Shown here piece by piece: positions 4,565-56,873 of a stretch of DNA of 64,000 bases; position 1 is the stretch's first letter, and the number at the start of each line of letters is the position of its first letter. The translations under genes and the position numbers were made by a program. Source of the DNA: Thermoplasmata archaeon (GTDB taxonomy: Archaea > Thermoplasmatota > Thermoplasmata > Lutacidiplasmatales > UBA184); contig JAKAWP010000004.1 in assembly GCA_021816955.1 (NCBI GenBank), positions 117 through 64,116 of the forward strand, in the 5' to 3' direction. The notes under the pieces were generated by a model, which searched no databases, was not told the origin of the DNA, and saw nothing but the letters and a program-made list of their open reading frames with translations.

Positions 4565-6256
4565 TCAGACCCCCAGCTGGGCGAACGGGCCCAGCACCAG
4601 GACCGGTAGGAACAACAGGCCGGACAAGATGATCACGAGGAGCGTGAGGAACATCGCAAACGTCCATCCGCGGGTCTGGAGCGTCCCCGGCCCCGGCTGG
4701 AGCACGTCCTGGTGGGCGAAGATCGAGCCGATGGCGAGCATGCCGATCATCGGCGCGAAGCGGCCGATCAGCATGATCGCGGCGCCGACGACATTGAAGA
4801 AGATCGTTCCGTCGGCGATCGGGCCCATCGCGCTCCCGTTGTTCGCGGCTTCGCTCGTGAACTCGTAGAGCACGGTCGTGAACGCGTAGGCGTTCGTCGG
4901 GATCGAACCGCCGGCGACCGCGACGAACCCGCCCACGGTCGCCACGACCAAGGGAACGAGGATCAGCGCCGGATGCAACAGGAGCACGCCGGCGGCCCAG
5001 CGCATCTGGGAGGTCCCGACCTTCTTGCCGAGGTACTCAGGCGTCCGACCGACCATCAGGCCGCCCACGAAGACCGCGATCACCGCGAAGACGAGGAGCA
5101 TCCCGAAGCCGGTCCCGTCGCCGCCGGGGGTCGACTGGGTGAACATGCCGAACAGCAACACGGCCTGGCTGAGCGGGGCGAGGCTTCCGATCTGCACGCT
5201 CGTCGCGCCGGTATTCGAGTAGACGCTGACGACCTGGAAGAGCGACGCCTCGGTCCCGCTGAACCGGGTCTCGAAGCCCGGCCCGGGGAACGCGCCCGAC
5301 GCGAACCCAAACGACGAGAGCGCCGGGTTCGACCCGGACTGGAAGAACAGGACGAGGCCCAACGCGACGAACAGGACGACCACGGACGTGGCGAGGAACG
5401 GAAACCCCTCCCCCGGACGGCGAACGATCTGGGCGAAGGCGAACGGGAACCCGAGCGGAATGAGCAGCATGAGCCCCGTCTGAAAGAGGTTCGACGCCGC
5501 GTTCGGATTCTCGAACGGCGACATCGCGTTCGCGGAGAACCAGCCGCCGCCGTTCGTGCCGAGCATCATGATCGACTCCCAGGAGGCGACCGGCCCGACG
5601 TAGATCGTCTGGGACCCTCCGCCGAGGGTGTGGGCGGTGAGGTCGTAGGCGAGCGTCTGGGGTACTCCGAACGCGACGAGAACGACGGCGCCCACGAGGG
5701 CGAGCGGAAGGAGGACCCGGGTCATCGTGCGGACCATGTCGACATAGAAGTTGCCGAGGGTGCCGTCCTTGTGCGTGAACCCCCGGATGAAGGCGGCGGC
5801 AACGCTCATCCCCATCGCGGGGGAGAGGAACAGCGCCGCTTGGAGGCCGAAGAGCGCCGCCCCGTACGACAGCTGGGATTGGGGGTTGAAGTGCGTGAAG
5901 TCGGTGTTCGTGAGGAAGCTCGCGGCGGTGTGGCTGGCGAGGTCCCACGTCATTCCGGGATCTCCCACCGGATTGAGCGGAAGGCTGGACTGCAGGGTGA
6001 GCAACAGCACGATCCACACAAACAGGCCGGCGCTCGTGAGCAATAGCGCCCCGACGTACTCCCGAAACCGCATCGAGATCCGAGGCGAGGTCCCGAGCAG
6101 GCGATAGATCGCCGTTTCGACCGGCGTGAGCAGGCGGTCCCCGAGGAGCGGTCGGTTCAGGTAGACGCGGCCCAGGTACTCTCCGAAGTACGGCGCGAAC
6201 GCGAGGACCGCGGCGAAGACGATCGCGATCTCAAGGAGGCCCCCGAGGTCGACCAC
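4565..6256 (-). CDS. kdpA: K+-transporting ATPase subunit A
   Basis: 563-aa polytopic membrane protein with the KdpA-type LGTNGGGWF selectivity-filter segment. GTG start. Confidence 0.95.
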   Translation of the reverse strand: MVDLGGLLEIAIVFAAVLAFAPYFGEYLGRVYLNRPLLGDRLLTPVETAIYRLLGTSPRISMRFREYVGALLLTSAGLFVWIVLLLTLQSSLPLNPVGDPGMTWDLASHTAASFLTNTDFTHFNPQSQLSYGAALFGLQAALFLSPAMGMSVAAAFIRGFTHKDGTLGNFYVDMVRTMTRVLLPLALVGAVVLVAFGVPQTLAYDLTAHTLGGGSQTIYVGPVASWESIMMLGTNGGGWFSANAMSPFENPNAASNLFQTGLMLLIPLGFPFAFAQIVRRPGEGFPFLATSVVVLFVALGLVLFFQSGSNPALSSFGFASGAFPGPGFETRFSGTEASLFQVVSVYSNTGATSVQIGSLAPLSQAVLLFGMFTQSTPGGDGTGFGMLLVFAVIAVFVGGLMVGRTPEYLGKKVGTSQMRWAAGVLLLHPALILVPLVVATVGGFVAVAGGSIPTNAYAFTTVLYEFTSEAANNGSAMGPIADGTIFFNVVGAAIMLIGRFAPMIGMLAIGSIFAHQDVLQPGPGTLQTRGWTFAMFLTLLVIILSGLLFLPVLVLGPFAQLGV

Positions 6257-30381: not shown

Positions 30382-32724
<2,343 letters not shown>

Positions 32725-33985: not shown

Positions 33986-36900
33986 CTACAGATACTGGGA
34001 GCACCGGTGGCAGTAGAACCGACCGTACTGCGGGTAGAACGTCGCGGCGTTCCCGCATCGGGGGCAGTTCGCGGCCATCGGGGTCGGGACCGTTCGAGCC
34101 GCGGTCGAACCCGCGGGGGACGGCATCGTTCCCGCCGGTGGGGAACTCCCCGGCGGCGGGAACCCGCTTCCCGATCCCGAACCGCCGGAACGAACGGAGG
34201 GAGCCGCGCCCGTCGCCGGCGGCCGGCCCCGGCGGCCCGCCCGCGAGGCGACTACGGCCCCGACGATCGCAACGATTCCCACGACGACCGCAATCTCGAC
34301 GTAAAGCATCGGGATCCCGAAGAGTGTCCCGCTCCCCCCACCGCCACCGGTGGGATTGAACGTCACGGTCGGACCGCTCGTGGCACCGGCGACCGTGAGC
34401 GTCCCGCTGCCGCCGCTATAGCCGGACGCCGTCGTGGAGTACTGATACGTGCCGTTCGGAAGCGCGACCACGATCGTCGCCCGACCGTCGGACCAGACGG
34501 TGATCGAGCTCCAGGGGGGCGGAAAGCCGGGGGCCGAAGGCGAACTCGCCGGGGCGAGCGTGAGCGACCAGTTCGTCCCCGACGGAAGGCCCGAGGCGGT
34601 GAACGACACCGAAAACGCCCGCTCGAACTCGATGGGAACGACGGAGCCGCGGCCCGCCACGACCACCGTGCCCGATGCGATGTTCGGGATCCATCCGGTC
34701 ACGTTCGCGACCTCGTACGGATACGTCCCGTTATCGAGCAGGACCACGATCGTCGATCCCGACGAGGCATCTTCCACCCCGTCCACGAACACGGCCCAGA
34801 GCGCGCCCGTCGGCAATCCGCTCTCGCTGAAGGTCACCGGATACGCGCCCGCCGGTACCGAATGGAAGCCGATCTGCTTGACCTGCCCAGCCCCCAAGAC
34901 GAACACCGCGCCCGAGCTCGGCGAGGGAACGTACCCGGTCACGAGACTGACCTGGTACGCATACGTCCCGTTCCCCGCAGTATAGGTGAGCGTCGAAGAC
35001 GTCGTCGTGCTTTGCGTACCGTTGAACGTCACGCCCCAGAGCGTACCCGTCGGCAACCCGATCTCTTCAAACGTCACGTTGTAAACCCCACTCGGCGAGA
35101 CCGAAGTGAAGACGATCCCTTGGGTGGCGGGACCGCCGTCGATCGCGACGACCCCCGATGGCGGCGATGCCGAATAGCCCGCGACCCGGCCCACAGTGAA
35201 CGCATACGACCCGTTGGTAGCGTTGAGGTCGATGATCGCCGTGACCGAGCTGTACGACCGGTTGCCCACCACGACCGACCACGGCGTGCCGACCGGAAGG
35301 CCGATCTCCTCAAAGCGGAGCTGATAGGTCGTCGGCGCGAACTGGAGAAGGACGGTCAGGTTTCCGTTCAGGGAGACCGATGACCGGTACGGAATGGTCG
35401 TCTGGAAGTATCCGGGAACCAACCCGAGGGTCCGCTCGTACCCCCCGCTCGGAAGTGTGAAACCGAGCACGCTGCCCGTCGTCGCATTGAAGGCCACCCG
35501 GGAGGAGGTGGTGCTGTTCATCCACATCTCCCACGCGGTCCCGACGGGCAGTCCTGTCTCTTCTACCGTCATCGTGTAGTTTGTGACCGGGAGCGGCCGG
35601 AACACGATCGCTTCGCTCGTGTTCTGGCCGGCGATCGTGATCGTCCCGCTCTCCGGAGAGGCAGCGAAGCCGCTCGCGTTCACCGAAAAGGCGTACGTGC
35701 CGTTCGTGAGACCGACAACCGTGACGTTGGCCGGCGCCGTCTGCGTGTTCGATTCCCCATTGATCGTCACCGTCCAGGGGGTTCCCGCCGGCAACCCGGA
35801 CTCTGCAAAGGTCGCCTGATACGTGCGGGGCGTCGCCACCGGGACGTACGACAGGACGCCCTGTTCTGGGCTTCCTCCGACCACGCTCAGCCCGTAGGTG
35901 TTCGCGCCGGTCCGGTTCCAAGAGAGGTTCGCGGCGATCTCGCCCGTCTGATCGACCTGCTGATCGAAGACGGCCGTCCGGGCGGGAACGAACGAGGACG
36001 AGCCGTACGGCTGAACCATCGCGACGAGCGATCCGTTCGTCGGTCGCTGAAATTCGCCGGTGGCACCGGACGGCCCGCCCACGAGTCCGAACTGCGGCGA
36101 GAGCCCGCCGAGCATTGGATTGTTGGGGTACGGACCGTTCGAGTAGTTCCTCCCCTGCCAGGAGTAGTTGTAGCCGAGCGAGCCGATGACGTACGCCGCC
36201 CCCGGCACGGGAAGGGTCAGGTTCTGGCCCGCCACGGAGAAGTCGATTTCCTGGCTGTTGAATCCCGGCGGACGGATCAGCGTGGTGCGGATCACGAACG
36301 TCTTCGGCAGAGAAACGGTTACATTCGGCGGGAAGTTGTACTCGTACACGGACTGTTGGGGATACAACCCGTAGAACGGGAAGATCACCCAACCGGTGTA
36401 CGCCATCCCCCACTGGGACGGCCCGCCTCGGATGTAGATCACGTTCTGGACCCAGTAGATCGGTGCGCCGAGACTGTTCGCGAGGAAGAAGTTCTGCTGA
36501 ATGGAGGCGTTGTACGTCGTGTAGATGCTACCCGATTTGTAGGACGTCACCTTAAGCGCGTTCAGGGACAGCGTATCCTCGACTCCCGAGAGCCGCCCGC
36601 TCACTCCGTTCGAATTGACGTTCAACATGTACATCGTGTAGTTGTACGCGTCGATCGATCCCCAACCGGTGACGAGGTCCCAACCTCGCAACGCTCCGTA
36701 TACCTGATTGTGGCCGCTCGTGACGTCGTAGAAGGGGAGCGTCGGAAGCGGCGAGTTATACGTTGACCCCGGAGAGGGGATGAATCCCACGTACCCCGTC
36801 GAATTGAACGGGGCCGCCTGGCGATCCCCGAGGGCGTACAGGCTCGGGTTCAGGAACCCGAGCCAAGCGTTCCCGTCCGCCTTCAAGACGTGGTCGATCG

Positions 36901-38713
36901 TCGCCACCACGCCCGCTTCAAGGGGAGACGCCACGCTCGTTCCGGCGATCGGAAAGAACGGCCCTCCGGTCGACGCGTTGGTCGCATCGTAGGTCATCGT
37001 TCCGACGGTGATCGTGAGAAGCGTGTTGTTCGCGAGCGCCGCGATGTCCGGCGTCGCGCGCCCGGACATTCCGGTCGACTGGATCACACGGTTCGCCGAG
37101 CTGTTCCTCTGCCAACTCGGCTCGGGGAAGACCGAACTGACCCCGCCGGTGGAGCCCTCCTTGTTCGTCTGATACCACACCGTTTGGTTCGCCAAGGTCA
37201 GATAGCCCGGCGTTCCGCTCGCCGCATCCAATGTCGGGGTGGTTCCGCCGACCGCGGTGACCCCGAACGAATCGTACGCCATGGTCGACGGAAAATTGAC
37301 ATCGGAGTTGCCCGAATCCCCGGAGGCGGCCAAGACCGTGATGCCGCGCGCTTGCGCCTCTTCGAGACCCGTGTACCAGGCCGTGTCGTTCTGGTCGGTG
37401 CCGCCCCAAGAGTTCGTCACCACCGAGACGTTGCGGAGGGGGGAACCGGCCGGCGGGTTCAATACGGTCGTGAAGGCGGCATCTAGATTGACGAGCGTGG
37501 GGTTCGGTCCGTAGACGTCGACGATGGTGGAGCCGGGGGCCGTGCTCCCGATCATTTCGAGGTCAAGCGTCGTCTCGACGGATGCGCCCGTGACATCGAA
37601 CGCCGCGGACGGCCCGGGCGAGAGCGCACCGTTCACCGGCAGACCCTCGATCTGGGGATGCGGCTCGCCGGCCGGAAGCGTTTCATTGAAGAACAGGTTC
37701 ACATTGCTCGGCACGTACGGCGCGGTGTAGTTCGAAGGCGAGCACGGGACCGAGGTGCTGGCCGGGACGCGGCACCCTCCCCACAGGATCGACGCGACGA
37801 CCCCATTGGTCGGATACCCGGCGTTCTGGAACAACCCGAGCTCATCATAGGCGACCTGGAAATCCGGAGCGTACTCGTACTGAACCCCGTTCACCGTGGC
37901 CGGTGGTACGTACCCGCCTTGGACGGACGCCGGGACGCTACGGGTCACGGGCGGCCCGTGCACCGAGGGAAGTAAGCGGAGCGAGACGGGGTGGACCGTG
38001 TACATCGAGTACGTGCTCAACCCGACGACTTCCGCCACATACGGCGCGACCGGGGAGGGCAACCTCGGACTCCCCGTCGGCGCTAGGTAGGCTCGCCCGT
38101 GAAGCACGTACTCTCCGAGTTGGACCCCAAAGATCTCGGCGATTTGGCGGGGCGTTGCCTCGAAGGTGAGCGACAGTCGGTCGGCGGTCGTCGTGATCGG
38201 CGCCACCCCGAACGATCGAACGAACGCTTCGAGGGCGTGATACGGCCCCGGCGCCCCCCCGAACTCGTGATCGAACTGCTGTTGGGTCAGATATCGGTGG
38301 TACAGCGGAGAGAGCGGATTCGACAACGCCAAAAGAAAATCGCCGAGAGCCGAACTATTCGTCGTCCGGAGGCTGATCAGGATCGGCACAGGGGCGGCGG
38401 GTGCCGGCCCGACCCATTGCGCGCCCGCGAGCCCGATGCCGGGCTCCCGATCCGGCACGTCGACCCGCGGAGCCAAGGCAAGCGCTCCGAGACCGCCAGC
38501 GATCGCGGGCGGGGTCGGACCCGGCGACGCGGGGAGCCCTGAGGGTGCCGAGGTGAGCGTGGAAGGAACGAAGAAGACGGCCGCGACCGCGACCACGAGC
38601 GCAAGTTGGACCGGCGTTGGTCGTCCGAATCGTCGATGCGCCCCTATCTCCACGGGATTCACCGATGTGGATTGTTGGTACGTGCGGCTGCTTAATACAG
38701 TGACTCTGCCCAT
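33986..38713 (-). CDS. giant membrane-anchored S53 peptidase with a thermopsin-like segment, six tandem beta-sandwich-type repeats, a TM helix and a C-terminal zinc ribbon
   Basis: It has a pro-kumamolisin segment (LSPLYHRYLTQQQFDHEFG) and the S53 motifs ETTLDLE, SWGG and AGTSVASPLEAG. A thermopsin-like segment follows (NASIQQNFFL...YWVQNV). The repeats are YxVTFxExGLPxGTxW modules. The TM helix is YVEIAVVVGIVAIVGAVVA, and the tail ends CPRCGN...CHRCSQYL. The start is the ATG at 38713; an alternative GTG at 38662 lies ~30 nt after a TATTAAG box. Confidence 0.85.
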   Translation of the reverse strand: MGRVTVLSSRTYQQSTSVNPVEIGAHRRFGRPTPVQLALVVAVAAVFFVPSTLTSAPSGLPASPGPTPPAIAGGLGALALAPRVDVPDREPGIGLAGAQWVGPAPAAPVPILISLRTTNSSALGDFLLALSNPLSPLYHRYLTQQQFDHEFGGAPGPYHALEAFVRSFGVAPITTTADRLSLTFEATPRQIAEIFGVQLGEYVLHGRAYLAPTGSPRLPSPVAPYVAEVVGLSTYSMYTVHPVSLRLLPSVHGPPVTRSVPASVQGGYVPPATVNGVQYEYAPDFQVAYDELGLFQNAGYPTNGVVASILWGGCRVPASTSVPCSPSNYTAPYVPSNVNLFFNETLPAGEPHPQIEGLPVNGALSPGPSAAFDVTGASVETTLDLEMIGSTAPGSTIVDVYGPNPTLVNLDAAFTTVLNPPAGSPLRNVSVVTNSWGGTDQNDTAWYTGLEEAQARGITVLAASGDSGNSDVNFPSTMAYDSFGVTAVGGTTPTLDAASGTPGYLTLANQTVWYQTNKEGSTGGVSSVFPEPSWQRNSSANRVIQSTGMSGRATPDIAALANNTLLTITVGTMTYDATNASTGGPFFPIAGTSVASPLEAGVVATIDHVLKADGNAWLGFLNPSLYALGDRQAAPFNSTGYVGFIPSPGSTYNSPLPTLPFYDVTSGHNQVYGALRGWDLVTGWGSIDAYNYTMYMLNVNSNGVSGRLSGVEDTLSLNALKVTSYKSGSIYTTYNASIQQNFFLANSLGAPIYWVQNVIYIRGGPSQWGMAYTGWVIFPFYGLYPQQSVYEYNFPPNVTVSLPKTFVIRTTLIRPPGFNSQEIDFSVAGQNLTLPVPGAAYVIGSLGYNYSWQGRNYSNGPYPNNPMLGGLSPQFGLVGGPSGATGEFQRPTNGSLVAMVQPYGSSSFVPARTAVFDQQVDQTGEIAANLSWNRTGANTYGLSVVGGSPEQGVLSYVPVATPRTYQATFAESGLPAGTPWTVTINGESNTQTAPANVTVVGLTNGTYAFSVNASGFAASPESGTITIAGQNTSEAIVFRPLPVTNYTMTVEETGLPVGTAWEMWMNSTTSSRVAFNATTGSVLGFTLPSGGYERTLGLVPGYFQTTIPYRSSVSLNGNLTVLLQFAPTTYQLRFEEIGLPVGTPWSVVVGNRSYSSVTAIIDLNATNGSYAFTVGRVAGYSASPPSGVVAIDGGPATQGIVFTSVSPSGVYNVTFEEIGLPTGTLWGVTFNGTQSTTTSSTLTYTAGNGTYAYQVSLVTGYVPSPSSGAVFVLGAGQVKQIGFHSVPAGAYPVTFSESGLPTGALWAVFVDGVEDASSGSTIVVLLDNGTYPYEVANVTGWIPNIASGTVVVAGRGSVVPIEFERAFSVSFTASGLPSGTNWSLTLAPASSPSAPGFPPPWSSITVWSDGRATIVVALPNGTYQYSTTASGYSGGSGTLTVAGATSGPTVTFNPTGGGGGSGTLFGIPMLYVEIAVVVGIVAIVGAVVASRAGRRGRPPATGAAPSVRSGGSGSGSGFPPPGSSPPAGTMPSPAGSTAARTVPTPMAANCPRCGNAATFYPQYGRFYCHRCSQYL
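34349..35821 (-). repeat. six tandem ~76-89-aa domain repeats (Y/F-x-V/L-T/R-F-x-E/A-x-GLP-x-GT-x-W ... NGTY-x-Y/F)
   Basis: Read from the translation. The repeat starts are YQATFAESGLPAGTPW, YTMTVEETGLPVGTAW, YQLRFEEIGLPVGTPW, YNVTFEEIGLPTGTLW, YPVTFSESGLPTGALW and FSVSFTASGLPSGTNW. Confidence 0.8.
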
Positions 38714-38777
38714 ATGCTTACGGGGCGAGGTCCGGGCCGAACGGCGGGTCTCGATACGGCCGCCACGCGCCGGCAAA

Positions 38778-44643: not shown

Positions 44644-44842
44644 GGAGTCGACCTCTCCGGCGCATCTAGTCGGTCGGATGCCTTAAGCTCTGCGCCGCTC
44701 GGGCCGCACACCCGGGCGGTTCCGCTGGCCGCCCACCGACCGAGGGGGGACCCGGTCCGAGGGCGTCCTCCCCCGCTCCTCGCGGTTCGTACCTACTCCC
44801 ATAAACGGCTTGGCCCTTCCCGCGCTGTCCCGAGAGCCGAGC

Positions 44843-46105
44843 ATGGTCGTAGCGAAGCCTCCCTTGGTGGACCAGCCGAGGGACCGGGAAGGCGTCGGGC
44901 CGGCGGTCGCCCCGGACCCGGGAATCGACCTCGTCAACTTCGCGGTCAGCATCGACTCGGGATCGATCGAGACGTTGGAACTGGCGAACCGACGGATCGG
45001 CCCGGCGTTCGTACAGGAGCGCTTCGATCAGATTTCGGGCACCCACGAAGTCGCGGTCCTCAAGACGTGCCATCGCACGGAGCTGTTCGTGCTCGGGGGC
45101 AGCGCTTCCGATCGGGACCGCTGGGCCGATGCGCTCTCGGAGATCGGGGGACCGTGGACGCGGCGGGACGGGGCGGCCGCCGTCTCGCACCTGTTCCGCG
45201 TGGCCGCCGGATTGGAGTCGACGGCGGTCGGCGAAGCGGAGGTACGGCGACAGGTCCGCGACGCGGCGGCGAAGGTGACGAGCCGCTACCCTCGGCCCGT
45301 CTTGCGGCCGCTCTTCGAGCGGGCCGTGGCGACCGCCGAAGCGCTCCTGCCGACCGTAGGGCCCGAGCGATCGATCGCCGCGGTCGCCGCCAGCCGGGTC
45401 CTCGAGACGGTCGGCCGGCCGTTTCCTCGGGTCGTGGTCGTCGGTAGCGGGGTGGTCGGTCGCCAGGTCGCCGATCTGCTCGCTCCGTTCGCCCGCCTGA
45501 CCGTCGTCTACCGTTACCATCCGCCCGAGGAAACGTTCCTGCGGACCATCGGGGCCCGGGCGGCCCCGATCGAGGGCCTCTCGGACGAGCTCGACGTCGC
45601 CGATGCGGTCGTCGCCTGTGCGAAGAGCGGCTCGACGGTCGTCTCGCTCTCGAAGCCACGGACGGCCCACCCCCTCGTGGTCGTCGACCTGGGCGTTCCC
45701 CGCAACGTCGACCCGAACGCCGCGACCGTTCCCGGGGTCACGGTGGTCGACCTCGAGTCGCTCTACCGGACGGCGCGCCTCGCGCCGCTGCCCGCCGCGA
45801 CGATGGCAGAACTCGAGCGACGCGCGGCCGCCGCGGTCGACGAGCTGCGACAGGAGCAGCGGACGGCGCGGATCGATCGCCTGTGGCGGGAGGCCGAATC
45901 CGCCCGGCAGGCGGAACTCGACGTCGCCCGGCCGTTCCTGGGCCCGCTCACCCCCGTCCAACAGGCCGCCGTCGATCGCCTCACCCGTCGGCTCGTCATC
46001 CGTCTTCTCGCTCGTCCGCTCTCTCGCCTCAAGTCCGTTCGGGCCCGACCGGACGACGAGGCCGAATTCGAGGCGGCGCTCGAGCTGTTCACCGACCGGC
46101 CGTGA
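44843..46105 (+). CDS. hemA: glutamyl-tRNA reductase
   Basis: Contains the active-site segment LKTCHRTELF and the NADPH-binding motif VVVVGSGVVGRQV. The start is set at the first ATG. Confidence 0.9.
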   Translation: MVVAKPPLVDQPRDREGVGPAVAPDPGIDLVNFAVSIDSGSIETLELANRRIGPAFVQERFDQISGTHEVAVLKTCHRTELFVLGGSASDRDRWADALSEIGGPWTRRDGAAAVSHLFRVAAGLESTAVGEAEVRRQVRDAAAKVTSRYPRPVLRPLFERAVATAEALLPTVGPERSIAAVAASRVLETVGRPFPRVVVVGSGVVGRQVADLLAPFARLTVVYRYHPPEETFLRTIGARAAPIEGLSDELDVADAVVACAKSGSTVVSLSKPRTAHPLVVVDLGVPRNVDPNAATVPGVTVVDLESLYRTARLAPLPAATMAELERRAAAAVDELRQEQRTARIDRLWREAESARQAELDVARPFLGPLTPVQQAAVDRLTRRLVIRLLARPLSRLKSVRARPDDEAEFEAALELFTDRP

Positions 46106-46992
46106 GCAGCGCCTTGCGCATCGGCACCCGGCGGAGCCGGCTCGCCCTCGCCCAGACCGACCTGGTCGTGCGCGCGCTCGCCCGCCGCTCCCCTCGGCTT
46201 CGGACCGAGGTCGTTCCGCTCGTGACGTCGGGCGACCGCCGCCGCGGACGGACCCCGGACTTCACCGACTCGCTCGAACGGGCCCTCGAGCAGGACGCGA
46301 TCGACGTCGCCGTCCACAGCGCGAAGGATCTGAACCGGGACCTGCGACCGGGCCTCACGATCGCGGCGACCCTCCCGCGGGCCGACCCGCGTGACGCGTT
46401 CGTCCGGCCCCGGGGAGCGTCCCGTCCCCTGCCGGCGGACGGGGTGACGGTCGGATCGAGCAGTCCGCGACGACGCGCCCAGCTGCTGCGCGGGCGACCG
46501 GGCTGGGAGGTGGTCGAACTGCGGGGGAACGTCGACCGACGGCTCGATCAGCTCGACCACGGCCGATTCGACGTTCTTTGCCTCGCCGTCGCCGGGCTCG
46601 AGCGGCTCGGCGCCGCGGATCGGATCGCGGAGCGGTTGCCGGTCGGGCGGTTCGTTCCGTCCCCCGGGCAGGGGACGATCGCGCTCGAGGTTCGAGAGGA
46701 CGATCGGGCGACGCTTCGAGCGGTCCAACGGATCGACCATCCCGTGAGCCGGGCACGGCTCACGGCCGAACGGGCGGCCGCCCGGGCCGTCGACGGCGAC
46801 TGCGATCGGCCGTTCGGGGCGTTGGCGGTGGCCCACGGACGCCGGCTCGACCTTATCGCCGAGGCCCTGTCGAGCGACGGACGCCGAACGGTCCGGGTCC
46901 GGGCGTCCGGCTCGATCGCGGCGCCGTCGGACGTCGGGCGACGGGCCGGCGCGGCGCTGACGACCCGGGGAGCGCATCGGCTCTGGGCGTAG
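46102..46992 (+). CDS. hemC: hydroxymethylbilane synthase (porphobilinogen deaminase)
   Basis: The GTG overlaps the hemA TGA (GTGA). Contains LRIGTRRSRLALAQT and VTSGDR motifs. Confidence 0.9.
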   Translation: MSSALRIGTRRSRLALAQTDLVVRALARRSPRLRTEVVPLVTSGDRRRGRTPDFTDSLERALEQDAIDVAVHSAKDLNRDLRPGLTIAATLPRADPRDAFVRPRGASRPLPADGVTVGSSSPRRRAQLLRGRPGWEVVELRGNVDRRLDQLDHGRFDVLCLAVAGLERLGAADRIAERLPVGRFVPSPGQGTIALEVREDDRATLRAVQRIDHPVSRARLTAERAAARAVDGDCDRPFGALAVAHGRRLDLIAEALSSDGRRTVRVRASGSIAAPSDVGRRAGAALTTRGAHRLWA

Positions 46993-47004
46993 CGAGGCTG
47001 GGCC

Positions 47005-47766
47005 GTGACCGAACGCCCGACAATCCTCTTGCTCGCCTCCGACCGGACGTTCCCCGGGTTCGAGCGGCGGCTCGGCGGTCGGGCGTTTGAGGTCGTCCGG
47101 TGGGAGACCGTTCGGTTCCGTCCGGTGGCGCCGCACCTCATCACGCGGCGGCTCCGCCGGTTCGGCCCGTTCGACACCGTCGTGGTGACCAGTGGGCCGG
47201 GGGCGCGGGCGCTAGTCGATTGGTCGCGGCGCCAGCTGTTGGGTGTTCGACCTTCCGAACTGGAGATCTGGGCCGTCGGACCCGCCACGGCCCGCGCCGT
47301 CCGCACCGCCGGCGGAAATCGCGTTCGGACCGCCGCCGGTACTGGCGCCGCCGCCATCGCCCGGGAGTTTGCGCGGCTGCCACCGCGCCGGGTCGTGCGG
47401 GTACGGTCGGATCGAGCCGGCCCAGCCCTCGCCCGGAGTCTCCGACGCTCGGGGCATACGGTGCTCGATCTGATCGGCTATCGCGTCGCCGCCCCGGACC
47501 GACCGAGCCGCCGGCTCCGGCGCGCCGTCGACCGGGCCACGGTGGTGGTCGCCACGAGCCCGTCGGCGATCTCCCTGGCGCGGCTCCGGCTCGCCCCGAC
47601 CCGCTTCGCGCGGTTGAGGCACCGCGCCATCGCCTTCGGAGTCGGGATCCGGACGGTCCGGGCGTTGCGGGGTCACGGCTTCCGCCGGGTCCGCGCGCTC
47701 TCGCCCTCCGGCGCACAACGATTTACGGCCCGCCGCCTCCGCGAGGAAGTCGATGGCCTCTCTTGA
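47005..47766 (+). CDS. hemD: uroporphyrinogen-III synthase
   Basis: 253 aa with HEM4-like VVVTSGPGARALV and VVATSPSAISLA segments. Its position between hemC and hemB supports the call. Confidence 0.8.
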   Translation: MTERPTILLLASDRTFPGFERRLGGRAFEVVRWETVRFRPVAPHLITRRLRRFGPFDTVVVTSGPGARALVDWSRRQLLGVRPSELEIWAVGPATARAVRTAGGNRVRTAAGTGAAAIAREFARLPPRRVVRVRSDRAGPALARSLRRSGHTVLDLIGYRVAAPDRPSRRLRRAVDRATVVVATSPSAISLARLRLAPTRFARLRHRAIAFGVGIRTVRALRGHGFRRVRALSPSGAQRFTARRLREEVDGLS

Positions 47767-48748
47767 CCGAGCCCCCGTTCGAAGCCGGTTGCGGCTGCGC
47801 CGGATGCGGCGGCTGGCAGCGGTCCGCCGGTGGACCGCCGGGCCGACGGTCGACGTGGAGCGGTTGATGTGGCCGATCTTCGTCCGGCCCGGCGCGGGTG
47901 CTCCCGAGCCGGTCGCCGCGCTCCCGGGCGTCGAACGGTACTCCGTCGGTCGCGTCGACCGGCTCGCCCGAACGATCCAATCCGAGGGCCTCCGTTCTGT
48001 TCTTGTCTTCGGCGTGCCCCGGCGGAAGGACGACCTCGGGTCGGGCGCCGTCGCCCCGAACGGGCTGGTCCCGCAGGCGATTCGGGCCATCAAGCGGGCG
48101 GCGCCCGATCTGGTGGTGGCGACGGACGTCTGCTTGTGCGCGTACACCCGGTACGGGCACTGCGGCGTGGTGCGGGGCCGCGAGGTCGACAACGACCGGA
48201 CCGTCGAGCAGTTGGCCCGCATGGCCGTCGCGCACGCGCGAGCGGGGGCCGACTTCGTTGCGCCGAGCGCGATGATGGACCACCAGGTCGGCGCGATTCG
48301 GGACGCCCTCGATCGCGCCGGTCACACCTCCACCGGCATCCTCGCGTACGCGGCGAAGTTCGCAAGCGCCTTCTACGGCCCGTTCCGCGAAGCCGCCGAT
48401 TCGGCCCCGGCATGGGGAGACCGACGCGGCTACCAACTCCCGCCGGACCACCTCCGGGCGGCCCTCGAGGAGATGGCGGAGGACGCCGCGGAGGGCGCCG
48501 ACGTGCTGATGGTCAAGCCCGGGCTCCCGTACCTCGATGTGCTCGCGCGCGCCCGGGAGCGGTTCGACCGGCCGCTCGCGGCGTACCAGGTGAGCGGGGA
48601 GTACGCGATGCTCAAGGCGGCGGCTCGGGCCGGTGCACTCGACGAGCGGGCCGCCGTCGACGAGTCGATCGTCGCGCTCCACCGCGCGGGCGCCGACCTG
48701 ATCGTCTCCTATTTCGCCCGCGAGATCGCCCAACGGAGGGGACGGTGA
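47753..48748 (+). CDS. hemB: porphobilinogen synthase (ALA dehydratase)
   Basis: 331 aa containing RLRRMRR...PIFV, APSAMMDHQVGAIRDAL and VKPGLPYLDV. It overlaps hemD by 14 nt. Confidence 0.93.
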   Translation: MASLDRAPVRSRLRLRRMRRLAAVRRWTAGPTVDVERLMWPIFVRPGAGAPEPVAALPGVERYSVGRVDRLARTIQSEGLRSVLVFGVPRRKDDLGSGAVAPNGLVPQAIRAIKRAAPDLVVATDVCLCAYTRYGHCGVVRGREVDNDRTVEQLARMAVAHARAGADFVAPSAMMDHQVGAIRDALDRAGHTSTGILAYAAKFASAFYGPFREAADSAPAWGDRRGYQLPPDHLRAALEEMAEDAAEGADVLMVKPGLPYLDVLARARERFDRPLAAYQVSGEYAMLKAAARAGALDERAAVDESIVALHRAGADLIVSYFAREIAQRRGR

Positions 48749-49470
48749 GCGACCCGACCCCTTCGGAGCCGCCGGGCGGCCCCCGGGATGTCGTCAAGTA
48801 CACGTTCTTCCACGTTCGACCGGAGTGGCGTCGCCGCCCGGCGAGCGAGCGCCGGGAGGCGCGGGAGGAGTTCGCCCGGACGCTCGAACGACCGATCGCC
48901 GACCTCCTCTGGCGGACGTACTCGCTCGTCGGAACGCGGGCGGAAGCCGATCTCTTGCTCTGGACGATCGCCCCCCGCCTCGAGCCGATCCAGACCCTCC
49001 ACGGGCGGCTCAACGCGACGGCGCTCGCCGGGTACCTCGATGTGCCGTACTCCTACCTCGGGATGGCCCGCCGCAGCGAGTACCTCGGCGAGCACGCCCA
49101 CGGCGGCGAGGGGAGTTCGGCCCGTCGCCGTCCGCTCGACCGACCGTACCTCTTCGTCTACCCGTTCATCAAGAAGCGCGAGTGGTACGGCCTCCCGTTC
49201 GAGGAGCGGCGGCGGATCATGGCCGAGCACTTCCGTATCGGTCACCGCTACCCGAGCGTCGAGATCCACACCGGCTACTCCTTCGGGCTCGACGACATGG
49301 AGTTCATCCTCGCCTTTGAGGCCGACGATCCGGCGACGTTCCTCGACCTCGTCGCCGAGCTCCGGCCGTCGGAAGCCAGTCGGTACACCGCCCTCGAGAC
49401 CCCGATCTTCACCGCCCGCCAGATGGACGTCCGCGAGGCGTTGGCCCTCGCGGACGGCGCCCCCGAATGA
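48745..49470 (+). CDS. hemQ: chlorite-dismutase-family protein, HemQ/ChdC-like coproheme decarboxylase
   Basis: The GTG overlaps the hemB TGA. Contains YTFFHVRPEW, FVYPFIKKREWY and MAEHFRIGHRY segments typical of Cld-like/HemQ proteins. Confidence 0.8.
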   Translation: MSDPTPSEPPGGPRDVVKYTFFHVRPEWRRRPASERREAREEFARTLERPIADLLWRTYSLVGTRAEADLLLWTIAPRLEPIQTLHGRLNATALAGYLDVPYSYLGMARRSEYLGEHAHGGEGSSARRRPLDRPYLFVYPFIKKREWYGLPFEERRRIMAEHFRIGHRYPSVEIHTGYSFGLDDMEFILAFEADDPATFLDLVAELRPSEASRYTALETPIFTARQMDVREALALADGAPE

Positions 49471-50783
49471 CGGGCGGGGCCGGGCCGACGTCCCGTCGGC
49501 TCTTTCGCCGGGCCCGCCGGGCCCTCGTCGGCGGCGTCGACAGCCCGGTCCGGTCGTTCCAGGCCGTGGGAGGATCGCCGGTCTTCTTCCGGTCGGGCCG
49601 GGGCGCCTACCTCGCGGACGTCGACGGACGACGGTACCTCGATCTCGTGAATTCGTGGGGTGCCGATCTCCTGGGGCACGCCCCTCCCGCGGTCCTCCGG
49701 GCGGTGCGCGCGGTCGCGCGGGACGGGCTGTCGTTCGGTGCGCCGTCCCCGCTCGAGCACGAGCTCGCGGAACGGATCGAGCGGGCGATCCCCGAGATCG
49801 AACGGCTTCGGTTCGTGACCTCGGGAACTGAGGCGGTGATGAGCGCGGTGCGCGTCGCCCGGGCCGCCACGTCGCGCTCGAAGGTGGTGAAGTTTGACGG
49901 GGGGTACCACGGCCACTCGGACGGACTCTTGGTCCGCGCCGGCTCGGGGGTGCTCACCCACGCGCAGCCCGGCTCGGCCGGCGTGCCCGAATCGATCGCG
50001 GCGGAGACGCTCGTCGTCCCGTACAACGACGTCGACGCGCTCGCCGAGCTGTTCGAACACCGAGGCCGCGAGATCGCCGCGGTCGTCGTCGAGCCGATCG
50101 CGGCGAACATGGGGCTCGTTCCTCCGACTCCCGGCTTTTTGCCGAGCGTGAGCCGGCTCGCGCATGCGAACGGGGCCGTCGTGATCGCCGACGAGGTGAT
50201 CACCGGTTTCCGCCTGCGGCGAGGGGCGGTCGCCCGAACGCTCGGCCTCGACGCCGACCTCGTCGCGTTGGGCAAGGTCATCGGGGGCGGCCTGCCGATC
50301 GGCGCGTACGGGGGCCGCGCGGCGCTCATGGACCGGGTGGCGCCGAGCGGGCCAGTCTACCAGGCCGGGACGCTCGCCGGCAACCCGCTCGCCATGGCCG
50401 CCGGGGCGGCCGTGCTCGACGCGATCTCCCCGACCGATTATCGCCGGCTCGAGCGAACGGCGGCCGACGTCGAACGGGCGTGGAAGGAGGCGCTCGAGGG
50501 CCGGCTCGAGCCGTGGACGCTCCACCGACGGGGGTCGATGTTCGGGCTGTTCTTCGCCGCCGGACCGATCGTCCACCGGACGGACGCCGAGCGAACCGAC
50601 CGGGCACGCTACGCGACGTTCTTCCACCACGCCCTCGACGCCGGCGTCTACCTGCCCCCGTCGCCGCTCGAGACGGCGTTCCTGTCGCTCGCGTTCGGTC
50701 CGTCGGAGGTCGCGCGGCTCGCCCGCGCGCTCGGACGGGCGGCCGCGCGGTCGGCGTTGGAGGGCGGATGCGCCGCCGGCTGA
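49467..50783 (+). CDS. hemL: glutamate-1-semialdehyde 2,1-aminomutase
   Basis: 438 aa. The ATG overlaps the hemQ TGA (ATGA). Contains VNSWG, YHGHSD and DEVITGFR motifs. Confidence 0.95.
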   Translation: MTGGAGPTSRRLFRRARRALVGGVDSPVRSFQAVGGSPVFFRSGRGAYLADVDGRRYLDLVNSWGADLLGHAPPAVLRAVRAVARDGLSFGAPSPLEHELAERIERAIPEIERLRFVTSGTEAVMSAVRVARAATSRSKVVKFDGGYHGHSDGLLVRAGSGVLTHAQPGSAGVPESIAAETLVVPYNDVDALAELFEHRGREIAAVVVEPIAANMGLVPPTPGFLPSVSRLAHANGAVVIADEVITGFRLRRGAVARTLGLDADLVALGKVIGGGLPIGAYGGRAALMDRVAPSGPVYQAGTLAGNPLAMAAGAAVLDAISPTDYRRLERTAADVERAWKEALEGRLEPWTLHRRGSMFGLFFAAGPIVHRTDAERTDRARYATFFHHALDAGVYLPPSPLETAFLSLAFGPSEVARLARALGRAAARSALEGGCAAG

Positions 50784-51799
50784 TCGACGCGCTCGAGGGC
50801 CAACCGGTCGACACGATCCCGATCTGGCTGATGCGCCAGGCCGGTCGGTACCTGCCCGGCTACCGCGCCCTACGGGCGCGCCACTCGATCCTCGAGATCG
50901 CCCGGACCCCCGATCTCGCCTGCGAGGTGACGCTCGAACCCGTGCGGCGGTTCGACGTCGACGCCGCCGTCGTCTTCGCCGACATCACGCTGCCGTTCGC
51001 GGGCCTCGGCGTCGACTTCTCGATCGACCCCGGGGTCGGACCGGTGATCCCGAGGCCGATCCGCACCGCCGCCCAGGTCGAGGCGCTGCGGCCGTTCGAC
51101 GCGCGCGCGAGCGTGCCGTTCGTCGGCCAGGCGATCGAGCGGTACCGCGCCGCCGAGCACGATCGGCCGATCATCGGATTCGCGGGCGCGCCGTTCACGC
51201 TGGCCTCGTACCTGATCGAGGGCGGCCCGTCGCGGGAGTACGCCGAGACGAAGCGCCTGCTCTACGCCGAACCCCGGACCTTCGACCGGCTCCTCGACCG
51301 ATTGACGGAAGCGACGATCGACTACCTCGCCCGACAGGCCGAGGCCGGGGCCGCGGCGCTCCAGCTGTTCGACACCTGGGTCGGCACGCTCGGGCTCCGG
51401 CGCTACGAACGCCATGTCGTGCCGTTCCTCGAGCGCCTGCGCGACGGGCTCGCGCCGTGGAAGCGACCGGTCATCTACTTCGCGACCGGGGCGAGCCACC
51501 TTCTCGAACGGGCCGGCCGCCTCGGCTTCGCGGCGCTCGGCGTCGATTGGCGGGAGTCGCTCGGCCGGCTGCGGCGACGCCTCGGAGACGGGGTGACCCT
51601 GCAGGGCAACCTCGACCCCGGCGCGCTCCTGGCGGGCCGCGCGACGCTGGAAGCCGAGGCCCGGGCGGTCCTCGCCGAGATCCCCGACCACGATCGGCAC
51701 GTCTTCAATTTAGGCCACGGTGTGCTCCCCGCGACCGACCCCGAGCGGGTGAACGCCTTGGTCGAGCTCGTTCACGAGGAGGGCACCGCGCGACGATGA
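50768..51799 (+). CDS. hemE: uroporphyrinogen decarboxylase
   Basis: Trimmed to MRRRLIDALEGQPVDTIPIWLMRQAGRYLPGY, the canonical HemE start. It overlaps hemL by 16 nt. Confidence 0.93.
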   Translation: MRRRLIDALEGQPVDTIPIWLMRQAGRYLPGYRALRARHSILEIARTPDLACEVTLEPVRRFDVDAAVVFADITLPFAGLGVDFSIDPGVGPVIPRPIRTAAQVEALRPFDARASVPFVGQAIERYRAAEHDRPIIGFAGAPFTLASYLIEGGPSREYAETKRLLYAEPRTFDRLLDRLTEATIDYLARQAEAGAAALQLFDTWVGTLGLRRYERHVVPFLERLRDGLAPWKRPVIYFATGASHLLERAGRLGFAALGVDWRESLGRLRRRLGDGVTLQGNLDPGALLAGRATLEAEARAVLAEIPDHDRHVFNLGHGVLPATDPERVNALVELVHEEGTARR

Positions 51800-52740
51800 G
51801 CCCGGAGCCGACGGAGGCCGGAACCCCCCGACCGTTCGACGCGGTCCTCTTGATGGGCTACGGCAGCCCGTCCGGCCCGGCCGACCTACCGGAGTACCTC
51901 ACCGAAGTGATGCACGGACGCCGACCGTCTCCCGAGGTCGTCGCCGATTTCGCCCGGCGGTACGAGCGGATCGGCGGTTCGCCGCAGGCCAAGATCCTCG
52001 CCTCGCTCCGCTCCAAGCTCGAATCGCGGCTCGCCCGGGAGCGCCGACCGCTTCCCGTCTATCTCGGCACGAAGCACTGGCATCCCAACATCGCCGAGGT
52101 CGTTCCGCGCATCCGCGCGGACGGCCATCGTCAGGTCGTCGCGGTCCCGCTGAGCCCGTACGCCTCCACCTGGATCATGGAACCGTACGAAGCGGCTGTG
52201 AAGGCCGGGACGGCAGCGGCCGGGGGCGAGGTGACGGTCGAGCTGCGCGCGGGTTGGCACCTCGATCCCCATTGGATCGGCTATTGGGCGAAGGCGATCC
52301 GGGAGGCGTGGCGCCGGCTCGACGACCCCACCGCGGCGGTCCACCTCTCGGTCCACAGCCTGCCGCAGCGCTACCGCGACCAGGGCGACCCGTACCCGGG
52401 GCTGGTCCGGGCCACCGCGGACGCGGTCGCCGCCGCGGCCGGACTCGACCGCTGGTCGTTCACCTACCAGAGCCCGGGGAACACGACCGAACCGTGGCTG
52501 GGGCCCGACATCACCGAGCAGATCGTCGCCTGGAAGGAACGCGGCGCGCGCCGGCAGATCGTCGCGTCGATCGGATTCGTGTTCGACCACCTCGAGGTGC
52601 TGTACGACCTCGACGTCGTCGTCCGAGAGTTCGCGGAGGCCGCGGGCGTCGAGTACCATCGGGTGCCGATGCCGAACGACGGGCCCGAGGTCGTCGAGGC
52701 GCTCGCCGCGTGCGTCACGCGGCCCGCCTCCTCGGGCTGA
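51796..52740 (+). CDS. hemH: ferrochelatase (probably coproporphyrin ferrochelatase type)
   Basis: The ATG overlaps the hemE TGA. Contains LLMGYGSP, SVHSLPQRY and FVFDHLEVLYDLD motifs. Confidence 0.9.
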   Translation: MSPEPTEAGTPRPFDAVLLMGYGSPSGPADLPEYLTEVMHGRRPSPEVVADFARRYERIGGSPQAKILASLRSKLESRLARERRPLPVYLGTKHWHPNIAEVVPRIRADGHRQVVAVPLSPYASTWIMEPYEAAVKAGTAAAGGEVTVELRAGWHLDPHWIGYWAKAIREAWRRLDDPTAAVHLSVHSLPQRYRDQGDPYPGLVRATADAVAAAAGLDRWSFTYQSPGNTTEPWLGPDITEQIVAWKERGARRQIVASIGFVFDHLEVLYDLDVVVREFAEAAGVEYHRVPMPNDGPEVVEALAACVTRPASSG

Positions 52741-55280: not shown

Positions 55281-55682
55281 TCATCGGGGCACCCGCGACG
55301 CCGGCGTCTCTTCGTCCTCCACCGCTTCAAAGAGCTCGATCCAGATCCCGTCCGGATCCGACAGGAAGGCGAGCCGGGTCCGCCCCTCCACGAACGGAGG
55401 AATCTCCATCCGGGCCCCGAGCGAAACCAATCGGGCGGCGACCGCATCGAGGTCATCCACCCGAAAGCCGAGGTGATCGAGCTCGTCCCCCGGCCGGTAC
55501 GGGATGTCGCCCGGATAGTAGTTGAGTTCGAGGCGGCTACCGGAGTCCGGGTCGCGAAGCTCGAGCCACACGCCGCCCGCTGCCATCCGACCGCTCTTCT
55601 CCACGCGCAAGCCGAGGCCGTCCGTGTAGAAGCGGCGGGCGCGGTCCAGATCGCGGACCCGCACCCCGACGTACTCCAGCAT
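55281..55682 (-). CDS. VOC-family (glyoxalase I-like) protein
   Basis: 133 aa. MLEYVGVRVRDLDRARRFYTDGLGL and a second beta-alpha-beta-beta-beta half (LDHLGFRVDDLDAV). Confidence 0.8.
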   Translation of the reverse strand: MLEYVGVRVRDLDRARRFYTDGLGLRVEKSGRMAAGGVWLELRDPDSGSRLELNYYPGDIPYRPGDELDHLGFRVDDLDAVAARLVSLGARMEIPPFVEGRTRLAFLSDPDGIWIELFEAVEDEETPASRVPR

Positions 55683-55753: not shown

Positions 55754-55903
55754 TCAACGGGACCGGGGTTGGCCGGGAGGACAAGTCCGGCAGCACGCGG
55801 CATCGACGGCGCAGCAGGCGCAGCAGTGACAGCATCCTTCGGGACAATCGCAGCAGGCGCAGGACGGTCGCGGGGGGCGCCGGGCGCCCGATGTTTTCGT
55901 CAT
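55754..55903 (-). CDS. Cys-rich mini-protein (49 aa, 13 Cys), metallothionein-like
   Basis: This is the ATG-initiated tail of track ORF 55754-56242: MTKTSGARRPPRPSCACCDCPEGCCHCCACCAVDAACCRTCPPGQPRSR. A GGAG lies 7 nt upstream of the ATG. It fills an otherwise empty 388-nt gap between the V4R and VOC genes. Confidence 0.45.
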   Translation of the reverse strand: MTKTSGARRPPRPSCACCDCPEGCCHCCACCAVDAACCRTCPPGQPRSR

Positions 55904-56069
55904 GGTAGGCTCCGTCCGACCGAATCGTACCCGGTACCGCGCCGGGAAACGATAGGCTCTTCGCCTTCCACCGGGCCGCGACTCGCGACCCGAATAGAGG
56001 CGGCGACAACCGGGGCCGCCATCCCGTCCGGTTCCCGGCTCGTCGGATCGTTCCGCGGGCCTCTGCGGG

Positions 56070-56873
56070 CTACCGGGACCGCACGATCTCAAATTCGCAC
56101 GCCGGATCTCCCATCGCGAGGCATTTTCGTTCCGTGCACGTGACCTCCCCTCCGAGGATGACCGTGCCCGCTCCCGCGAGATAGCCGCGGTAAAACTGAG
56201 AGTAGGGAGCGTACGCCTGGCGGCCGGCGCACTCCAAGCCATCCTCCAGCCGGAGCCGCATCGACCGGCCGCTCGGATCGATGGTGGCGCTCCGCACGCG
56301 GCCCCACCCTACCGCCGCCCACACGCGGAACGCATATTCGAGATGCTGACGGCCCCACTCCACCCCGACCTTCCCGAAGTACCCCGCGAAGGCGGCCCGC
56401 CCTAAGTTGGACCCTTGTTCGTAGATCAGCACCGAACCGCCCGTTCCCATCCGGTCCCGGATGGCATCCAGCATGTTGAAGAAGTAGGTGCTTGTTAGCG
56501 AGAGGACGCGCTCACCGGATTCGATCGACCGCACCGGCAGCGCCGTTCCGACGAGCAACCCGTCCTCGCCGGATTCGACCCGAACCTCTTGGACGACGTC
56601 GATCGCGCGAAGCTTTTCCGTGAGGTGATCGGCCGAGAGCTTCGGCCCCTCCGCAAACATGTGGAGTATCCCATAACCGCGGCTCGACACGGCCGATCCG
56701 GAGAGGTGGAGCACGTTGATCGACTCGGACCGCACGACATTGGTCACGGCAGTGACCGCGCCCGGGCGGTCGACGAGCCGGATCGAGAACCGATACAACT
56801 CCTTCCCGGGCCGGTGAAAATAGATCGGGACTTCGTACCAAGCGAACGGGTCCCCTTCGGACGACGTTCCCAT
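56070..56873 (-). CDS. ACT-like domain plus V4R (4-vinyl reductase) small-molecule-binding domain protein
   Basis: 267 aa with an ACT-like YRFSIRLVDRPGAVTAVTNVV and the V4R C-terminal signature GLECAG...CTERKCLAMGDPACEFEI. Confidence 0.8.
   Translation of the reverse strand: MGTSSEGDPFAWYEVPIYFHRPGKELYRFSIRLVDRPGAVTAVTNVVRSESINVLHLSGSAVSSRGYGILHMFAEGPKLSADHLTEKLRAIDVVQEVRVESGEDGLLVGTALPVRSIESGERVLSLTSTYFFNMLDAIRDRMGTGGSVLIYEQGSNLGRAAFAGYFGKVGVEWGRQHLEYAFRVWAAVGWGRVRSATIDPSGRSMRLRLEDGLECAGRQAYAPYSQFYRGYLAGAGTVILGGEVTCTERKCLAMGDPACEFEIVRSR

Follow-up and report, generated by a model that had tools for sequence, protein, structure and literature searches.

The 64,000-nt stretch of DNA analysed here (the window; positions 117 to 64,116 of contig JAKAWP010000004.1, GenBank assembly GCA_021816955.1, from a Thermoplasmata archaeon) carries on its minus strand, at 55754-55903, a cysteine-rich small gene of 49 codons plus a TGA stop, which encodes 13 Cys and one His. 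Based on its translation, its homologues and the pattern of codon change among them, this open reading frame (ORF) is almost certainly a real, conserved protein-coding gene. Its product, on balance, probably functions as a metallothionein (MT), and its composition suggests that metal ions would be bound through thiolate clusters.

A conserved Cys-rich peptide

Minus-strand translation of 55754-55903 gave the 49-aa peptide MTKTSGARRPPRPSCACCDCPEGCCHCCACCAVDAACCRTCPPGQPRSR followed by the stop, exactly matching the peptide that an earlier note, made from the sequence of the window, had described as metallothionein-like. The 13 Cys fall inside 27 residues, and no other six-frame ORF of the window is as Cys-dense, the second having 8 Cys per 27 aa. 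That second ORF, at 5953-6156 (minus; 68 aa between stops), shares its DNA with the KdpA gene (4565-6256, minus), which is read in a different frame, and is most likely an out-of-frame artefact.

A phmmer search against 1.84 billion representative proteins returned one relative, P0003 (E 2.3e-11), a protein of 52 aa, MSGSNRSSRGGAYTRPSCACCDCLEVCCHCCACCSVDAACCTTCPPGRPERE, that keeps all 13 Cys and the His and forms a singleton cluster among ~15 billion proteins. A word-index protein search with the window peptide gave no match, although the homologue is present in the same collection. Further loci, given L numbers here, were sought at the DNA level with back-translated patterns of the window peptide and P0003; the pattern scan found two loci in JGI metagenomes (L004 and L005) and five in GTDB genomes (L006-L010), all labelled 'MAG: Thermoplasmata archaeon'. 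Inspection of the DNA downstream of OB-fold genes added L011 and a more diverged member in L018/L019, which reads ...RRPSCSCCECPEGCCHCCACRSVDAACCTTCTPSPPPP and has 12 Cys, one Cys being replaced by Arg. No member was found in a viral-contig scan. In total, ~10 distinct full-length relatives of 49-54 aa were obtained, five in Thermoplasmata metagenome-assembled genomes and the others in mine-drainage, wetland and other metagenomes. The family is apparently restricted to a subgroup of uncultured Thermoplasmata and previously undescribed.

In all full-length members the start and stop codons lie at equivalent positions, and the common core reads R[PF][SA]CACCDC[PL]E[GV]CCHCCACCx[VI]xxxCCxTCxP, with the Cys/His spacing CxCCxCxxxCCHCCxCCx5CCxxC; all 13 Cys are present in nine of the ten full-length members and 12 in the tenth. 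In the window this core spans codons 12-44 (55772-55870, minus; RPSCACCDCPEGCCHCCACCAVDAACCRTCPPG) and is presumed to be the metal-thiolate cluster region. The invariant columns of the family alignment are R12, C15, A16, C17, C18, D19, C20, E22, C24, C25, H26, C27, C28, A29, C30, C31, C37, C38, T40, C41 and P43; across the family the His is invariant, and D/E19, E22 and the Pro/Gly turns are kept. The tail before R-[PF]-[SA]-C is 11-17 residues long, rich in R, S, G and P and variable in both length and sequence, and a short variable tail follows at the C-terminus. In the window the N-terminal tail comprises codons 2-11 (TKTSGARRPP; 55871-55900, minus) and is basic. By eye, the N-termini of the family contain no hydrophobic stretch that could form the h-region of a signal peptide. 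A secreted disulfide-rich peptide, a lipoprotein and a twin-arginine translocation substrate were each considered and rejected; the RR or R-x-F before the first Cys runs straight into the Cys core.

The earlier note had proposed a search for a conserved Cys-rich ORF at the same position in related genomes. The frame was kept in the ~10 full-length relatives. Downstream of a 70%-identical ACT-V4R orthologue, L002 (1351-1440, plus) carries a GTG-started variant of 29 aa, MTRTFKTVDSARPSCACCTTFPPGLSRKA, with 3 Cys. It looks like the same gene minus ~20 codons in frame, lost by a deletion between the first and last CC-coding repeats, and is probably a decayed allele. The V4R gene and the 29-aa variant of L002 are separated by an inserted ORF of 120 aa (992-1354) that contains a hydrophobic stretch.

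Selection at the protein level

Codon change was compared over the 33-codon core of nine sequences. Variable sites at codon positions 1, 2 and 3 numbered 10, 6 and 32, respectively, that is, 32 of the 33 third positions vary. In the ORF frame the synonymous changes were saturated (proportion of synonymous differences, pS, 0.75), while the nonsynonymous proportion (pN) was 0.066, giving a pN/pS of 0.088; in contrast, pN/pS was >1 in four other frames and 0.22 in the antisense frame that shares the wobble positions. These comparisons indicate that selection acts strongly on the Cys-rich gene at the protein level.

The 13-mer GCAGCAGGCGCAG occurs twice on the plus strand of the window, at 55811-55823 (antisense of the codons for C28-A-C-C31) and at 55850-55862 (antisense of the codons for C15-A-C-C18), as the earlier note had reported in suggesting that this direct repeat might have created the ORF by chance. 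The 13-mer is not kept as DNA at other loci, whereas the CACC peptide repeat is: the CACC-coding repeats of the window are written there in other codons for the same amino acids. Since the codons differ while the amino acids stay, the comparison refutes a repeat-made chance ORF and also excludes that the sequence is conserved as RNA or DNA.

More generally, the possibility that the frame is a chance ORF in GC-rich DNA, arising from TGC/GCA-rich repeats, or that the real gene lies on the opposite strand, is negligible. It draws on the G+C content at third codon positions (GC3), which is 0.70 in the Cys-rich ORF vs. 0.81-0.91 in the adjoining genes, on the negative codon-usage scores of the ORF, and on gene callers, which omit it or call an antisense frame. 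However, the low GC3 and negative scores are explained by the unusual amino-acid content, as Cys codons are rare in ordinary genes; the peptide is kept across ~10 lineages at saturated synonymous sites; the antisense frame has a pN/pS of 0.22 vs. 0.09 and no conserved ends; and 60 random 64-kb sequences with the trinucleotide content of the window reached maxima of 4-6, never above 6, Cys per 27 residues. Competing frames were likewise rejected, namely the antisense plus-strand ORFs of 124 aa and 66 aa, a 101-aa minus-strand ORF in frame +2, which meets a stop in L002, and a 162-aa upstream extension overlapping the V4R gene, which is not kept elsewhere.

Only P0003 is called as a gene among the ~13 loci. 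L001, whose sequence is identical to the window locus, has no call for the Cys-rich gene, and in three further loci public calls lie on the opposite strand while the real gene is uncalled (L011:2884-3291, L018:3279-3503 and L019:2539-2667, all minus). Cys-codon runs read Ala-rich in antisense. Antisense calling may be an error that annotation makes systematically with Cys-rich micro-genes when the genome is GC-rich, and Cys-rich small genes may be under-reported in such genomes generally.

Metallothionein-like properties

MTs are recognized operationally by a mass below 10 kDa, ~15-35% Cys arranged in CC, CxC and CxxC motifs, few aromatic residues and no hydrophobic core, their defining property being a high metal content held in metal-thiolate clusters. 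All full-length members of the family have 49-54 residues, 24-29% Cys in CC/CxC/CxxC motifs, one His and 0-1 aromatic residues. Consistently, the metallothionein-like composition emphasized in the earlier note, with its Cys pattern, its His and its near-absence of aromatics, is precisely what the family conserves. AlphaFold2 prediction of the apo-peptide, run with a two-row alignment, yielded no confident fold (mean pLDDT 56, pTM 0.26). MTs are small Cys-rich proteins that form metal-thiolate clusters and fold only on metal binding (PMC7558416), and the absence of a confident apo fold fits proteins that fold around metal (PMC7558416).

In the proposed mechanism, the cytosolic apo-peptide would probably be disordered, as it has no hydrophobic core, and its 13 thiolates and single His would wrap a polynuclear cluster of soft metal ions, for which Cu(I), Zn(II), Cd(II) and perhaps As(III) or Hg(II) are candidates. 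By analogy with known 9-12-Cys MT domains, the capacity may be ~4-5 divalent or 6-8 monovalent ions. The PEG and P-P-G motifs could form turns, D19 and E22 could determine the form of the surface of the cluster, and its negative charge could be offset by the basic, variable tails. The protein would then buffer or sequester metal ions in the cytoplasm, being expressed either from its own promoter or by translational coupling to an upstream gene (in four lineages an OB-fold gene resembling single-stranded DNA-binding protein, SSB). The disorder of the apo-form, the metal stoichiometry and the promoter are all predictions of this scheme.

A metallothionein function is weakly supported by the mine-drainage origin of the window and its close relative, and by the presence of metal-homeostasis genes within 5 kb in three of eight lineages. 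Several observations weigh against it. The low AlphaFold2 confidence may only reflect the two-sequence alignment. Searches of nine members against Pfam-A and NCBIfam matched no family at E<=10, and PDB chains compared with the family profile gave no match at E<=10, so that no solved MT structure was matched; the HMMER filters used in family searches may drop weak low-complexity matches. One Cys is replaced by Arg in L018/L019, and the 3-Cys form in L002 shows that lineages can lose the gene. Two of the loci, L004 and L005, derive from wetland metagenomes and not from metal-rich mine water. Of the three lineages with metal-homeostasis genes nearby, the window copy has a Peripla_BP_2/FecCD/ABC importer and ferrochelatase, L006 an MntR/DtxR-type repressor, and L009 an ArsR-type regulator and an HMA P1B-ATPase; with none in the other five, this neighbourhood link is weak and probably no more frequent than expected by chance. 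In three metatranscriptomes from the mine-drainage study that the window comes from, coverage was zero over the whole 2.4-kb region including the neighbours, so that they are uninformative on expression.

To our knowledge, no archaeal metallothionein has been characterised, and a literature search returned no report of one; a literature search for the motif CCHCC gave nothing relevant. There is about an even chance that the family is an MT-like family independent in origin of the bacterial and eukaryotic MTs, and the first for Archaea.

Genomic context

In the window the Cys-rich ORF stands alone between two genes on its own strand, as the earlier note had described, in a gap of 387 nt. Upstream lies an ACT-V4R gene (56070-56873, minus; Pfam V4R 3.9e-11, ACT 2.7e-4), and downstream a VOC/glyoxalase gene (55281-55682, minus; 8.6e-21) that starts 71 nt past the Cys-rich gene. 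A V4R gene is found upstream only in the window lineage and its close relative L002, and a VOC gene downstream only in the window lineage. For the ACT-V4R protein itself, one non-self homologue was found in 5.8 billion proteins and none in GTDB genomes.

At the other loci the neighbours are different. L004 has a gene for a type III sulfide:quinone reductase (SQR)-like flavoprotein upstream and SnoaL downstream; L006 has tRNA-Ile and the divergent MntR/DtxR-type repressor upstream and a dihydrolipoyl-dehydrogenase-like gene downstream; in L007, PntB and then an OB-fold gene precede the Cys-rich gene, and convergent tRNA-Val and LonB follow it. LysO, tRNA-Val and an OB-fold gene lie upstream in L008/L011, and the HMA P1B-ATPase and ArsR-type regulator (1.7-5 kb away), then an OB-fold gene, in L009, where DUF2293 is downstream. 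L003/L005 couple the Cys-rich gene to an unrelated 59-aa ORF upstream and have a GHKL-ATPase (HATPase_c_3) downstream, while in L010 the upstream protein matches no family and the contig ends 154 nt after the stop. As the neighbours differ between loci, ACT-V4R and VOC are not functional partners of the Cys-rich gene; the link to them suggested in the earlier note was not supported, and a functional operon with V4R and VOC was rejected.

The only recurrent neighbour is a gene of ~105 aa (PF01336) for a single-OB-fold SSB/RPA-like protein, which lies directly upstream in four lineages (L007, L008/L011, L009 and L018/L019). Its stop overlaps the start of the Cys-rich gene as ATGA in L007 and L009, and a spacer of 1 nt separates the two genes in L018 and one of 16 nt in L008. 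The OB-fold gene has 428 homologues, and most of the sampled orthologues are without the Cys-rich gene (L012-L017, L020 and L021). Thus, the Cys-rich gene is patchy and self-contained, tail-gating an upstream gene or standing alone, and has no fixed partner gene.

Several further observations were made at these loci. The Thermoplasmata single-OB-fold SSB is labelled 'SOSS complex subunit B family', which is the NCBI annotation, or 'replication factor A1'. The 3' end of the OB-fold gene is a slot for different small genes that overlap its stop (L007:5171-5508, L008:2028-2354, L009:5714-6004 and L012/L013:2501-2824), and the occupant in L012/L013 is an unrelated gene of 116-125 aa with a weak CcbP-like Pfam match (E 0.0011). 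In three lineages tRNA genes lie ~40-450 nt from the Cys-rich gene or its OB-fold partner, namely tRNA-Ile-GAT at L006:1932-2007 (plus), tRNA-Val-GAC at L007:5710-5786 (minus) and tRNA-Val-CAC at L008:1853-1925 (plus); this proximity and the patchy distribution hint that the gene might have been inserted at tRNA-linked sites. IS66 and IS4-type transposases occur near the OB-fold genes of L018/L019 and L021. In L017, a related mine-drainage contig, two adjacent Cas1-domain ORFs (1485-2515, minus) and a type IIG/MmeI-like restriction-modification gene lie beside the OB-fold SSB gene.

Alternative functions

By falling likelihood, the alternatives to a metallothionein were ranked as a redox or sulfur-handling thiol protein, a partner of the OB-fold protein, the precursor of a ribosomally synthesized and post-translationally modified peptide (RiPP), a leader peptide and, last, the chance ORF dismissed above.

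A thiol-rich protein that handles oxidants or sulfur, be it as an oxidant scavenger, a carrier of persulfide or polysulfide, or a substrate of a flavoprotein disulfide reductase, is the foremost of these and is nevertheless unlikely. Vicinal CC pairs can form redox-active disulfides, the window encodes KatG, and flavoenzymes adjoin the gene on the same strand at two loci, the type III SQR-like flavoprotein immediately upstream in L004 and a class-I pyridine-nucleotide disulfide oxidoreductase immediately downstream in L006. However, the best-scoring assignment of the L006 enzyme (4.4e-46 on a 162-aa fragment) is an ordinary dihydrolipoyl dehydrogenase, and the six other lineages lack a neighbour of this kind. 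The strict conservation of the His, the Asp and the Glu and the constant spacing of the Cys are better explained by a defined cluster than by bulk thiol buffering. A redox role would also be compatible with metal binding, as MTs themselves scavenge oxidants.

Slightly less probable is a cluster-binding subunit or partner of another protein, notably of the single-OB-fold SSB/RPA-like protein, in which a Zn or Fe-S cluster would be structural or regulatory. The position of the Cys-rich gene directly after the OB-fold gene in L007, L008/L011, L009 and L018/L019 speaks for such a partnership, and start/stop coupling often marks subunits made in a fixed ratio. Against it, no OB-fold gene is present in the 64-kb window around the window copy, the gene is coupled to the unrelated 59-aa ORF in L003/L005 and free-standing in L004, L006 and L010, most OB-fold orthologues have no Cys-rich gene and those of L012/L013 have another gene in the slot, and the CC doublets are unlike zinc-ribbon or ferredoxin motifs. 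Its more specific form, in which the peptide would be a metal- or redox-sensing accessory subunit of the Thermoplasmata SSB whose cluster switches ssDNA binding or DNA repair under metal or oxidative stress, is doubtful to a still greater degree.

A RiPP precursor with a Cys-rich core modified by thioether, thiazole or sactionine chemistry, which the earlier note had put forward as an alternative, is very improbable. RiPP precursors are typically encoded by short Cys-rich ORFs, and the gene, besides being lineage-restricted, lacks annotation; yet the scan of neighbours in eight contexts revealed no maturase of the radical-SAM, YcaO, lanthipeptide or any other family, no export or processing gene lies nearby, and no NCBIfam precursor family was matched. 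Moreover, the would-be leader, the N-terminal 11-17 residues, is variable while the core is nearly invariant, which is the reverse of most RiPP families.

A Cys-sensing leader peptide, acting as a translational or transcriptional attenuator as in the mycobacterial polycysteine short ORFs, has hardly any likelihood left and is largely refuted by context. When Cys-tRNA runs short, ribosomes would stall on successive Cys codons (bioRxiv 10.1101/834739), and in the window the VOC gene follows closely on the same strand. The VOC gene, however, has its own AAATAA element at -27, and the downstream genes are unrelated between loci, the Cys-rich gene being followed in L007, L008/L011 and L018 by a convergent tRNA, a gap of >1 kb or an opposite-strand gene. 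In addition, R12, A16, D19, E22, H26, A29, T40 and P43 are invariant despite saturated synonymous change.

Candidate expression signals and other features of the window

A Shine-Dalgarno-like GGAG lies at 55910-55913 (minus), as the earlier note had indicated, with a spacing of 6 nt before the ATG, and may serve in translation initiation. L003, L004, L005 and L008 likewise carry GGAG or GGAGG between -10 and -5, which L006, L007, L009 and L010 lack. Further upstream, CCTATCGTTT (55947-55956, minus) is a candidate archaeal TATA box at -54, with an implied leader of ~24 nt, and no other AT-rich octamer-containing element occurs in the 150 nt that precede the gene. In L004, L006 and L010, where the gene is free-standing, the DNA carries CTAATGA or CCTATTC at -29 to -23 from the start codon. 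By their sequence and position, these AT-rich elements would act as the promoter. An Rfam scan of the window found two tRNAs only, neither in the gap that holds the Cys-rich gene.

The window and its close relative come from a mine-drainage metagenome, and the presence of Orc1/Cdc6, an archaeal-type methionine adenosyltransferase and a type-2 isopentenyl diphosphate isomerase shows that the window is archaeal. A heme-biosynthesis cluster occupies 44810-52740 (plus), with glutamyl-tRNA reductase at 44810-46105, glutamate-1-semialdehyde aminomutase at 49467-50783, URO-D ending at 51799 and ferrochelatase at 51796-52740, and the Peripla_BP_2/FecCD/ABC importer, in divergent orientation to the V4R gene, occupies 57753-~61480. 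A 1596-aa ORF at 33986-38776 (minus) scores well as coding sequence and matches nothing in NCBIfam at E<=1e-10. The catalase-peroxidase KatG is encoded at 30382-32625 (minus; E = 0) and KdpA, at the coordinates given above, was matched at 4e-130; together they point to an archaeon that lives aerobically or exposed to oxidants and has a Kdp potassium pump.

Significance

The cytosolic buffering of Cu, Zn, Cd and As in archaea of metal-laden acid waters is usually ascribed to efflux pumps and polyphosphate alone. With ~10 sequences, a 33-residue core and selection as a protein, the family described here makes the question of an archaeal metallothionein directly testable. If metal binding is true, a peptide of only 5 kDa that offers 13 thiolates and stems from acidophile-associated archaea would be relevant to bioremediation and to bioinorganic chemistry.

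Comparison with known systems

The archaeal peptide resembles the vertebrate alpha-domain (CCxCC), the fungal Cup1 and Neurospora Cu-MT and the Tetrahymena Cd-MT in its size of ~5 kDa, its ~25% Cys in CC, CxC and CxxC motifs, its near-absent aromatics and the lack of a predicted apo fold. CC doublets occur in the vertebrate alpha-domain and in ciliate Cd-MTs, as in the archaeal peptide. It differs from these eukaryotic MTs in having no detectable homology to them in Pfam, NCBIfam or PDB, an archaeal host and basic variable tails, and in consisting of one short domain that holds five CC doublets and, at its centre, CCHCCxCC; its metal binding is a prediction.

Among prokaryotic MTs, MymT, a mycobacterial Cu(I) MT of 4.9 kDa predicted to bind up to six Cu(I), sets a precedent for an unannotated ORF that proved to encode an MT (PMC7558416). 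Both MymT and the archaeal peptide are tiny, prokaryotic, Cys/His-rich, missed by annotation, lineage-restricted and free-standing, whereas no sequence similarity between them appeared in any search and MymT is copper-induced via a known regulator. MymT has mostly CxC/CxH motifs and fewer Cys than the archaeal peptide. SmtA/BmtA (Pfam Metallothio_Pro) are likewise prokaryotic, cytosolic and ~55 aa long, hold a Zn/Cd-thiolate cluster with His ligands and are often controlled by an ArsR/SmtB repressor; the L009 copy has an ArsR-type gene at a distance of 1.7 kb. SmtA differs in its zinc-finger-like fold, its aromatics, its 9 Cys and its 2 His, and no match was found to the Pfam families or to the PDB sequence library, which should include SmtA (1JJD, cited in PMC7558416).

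The polycysteine leaderless short ORFs of mycobacteria (bioRxiv 10.1101/834739) are alike in being unannotated, in their GC-rich genome, in their consecutive Cys codons and in being possibly leaderless. They act in cis on a downstream sulfur-metabolism operon, whereas the archaeal gene has no constant downstream gene and its peptide is under purifying selection. The C(P)XCG zinc-finger micro-proteins of Haloferax are archaeal, shorter than 70 aa, contain several Cys and are often missed by annotation. They have two to four CPxCG-like pairs and one Zn, while the Cys-rich family has no CPxCG and 13 Cys mainly in CC doublets. By analogy, the closest functional counterparts of the archaeal peptide would be MymT together with the CC-rich vertebrate alpha-domain or ciliate Cd-MTs.

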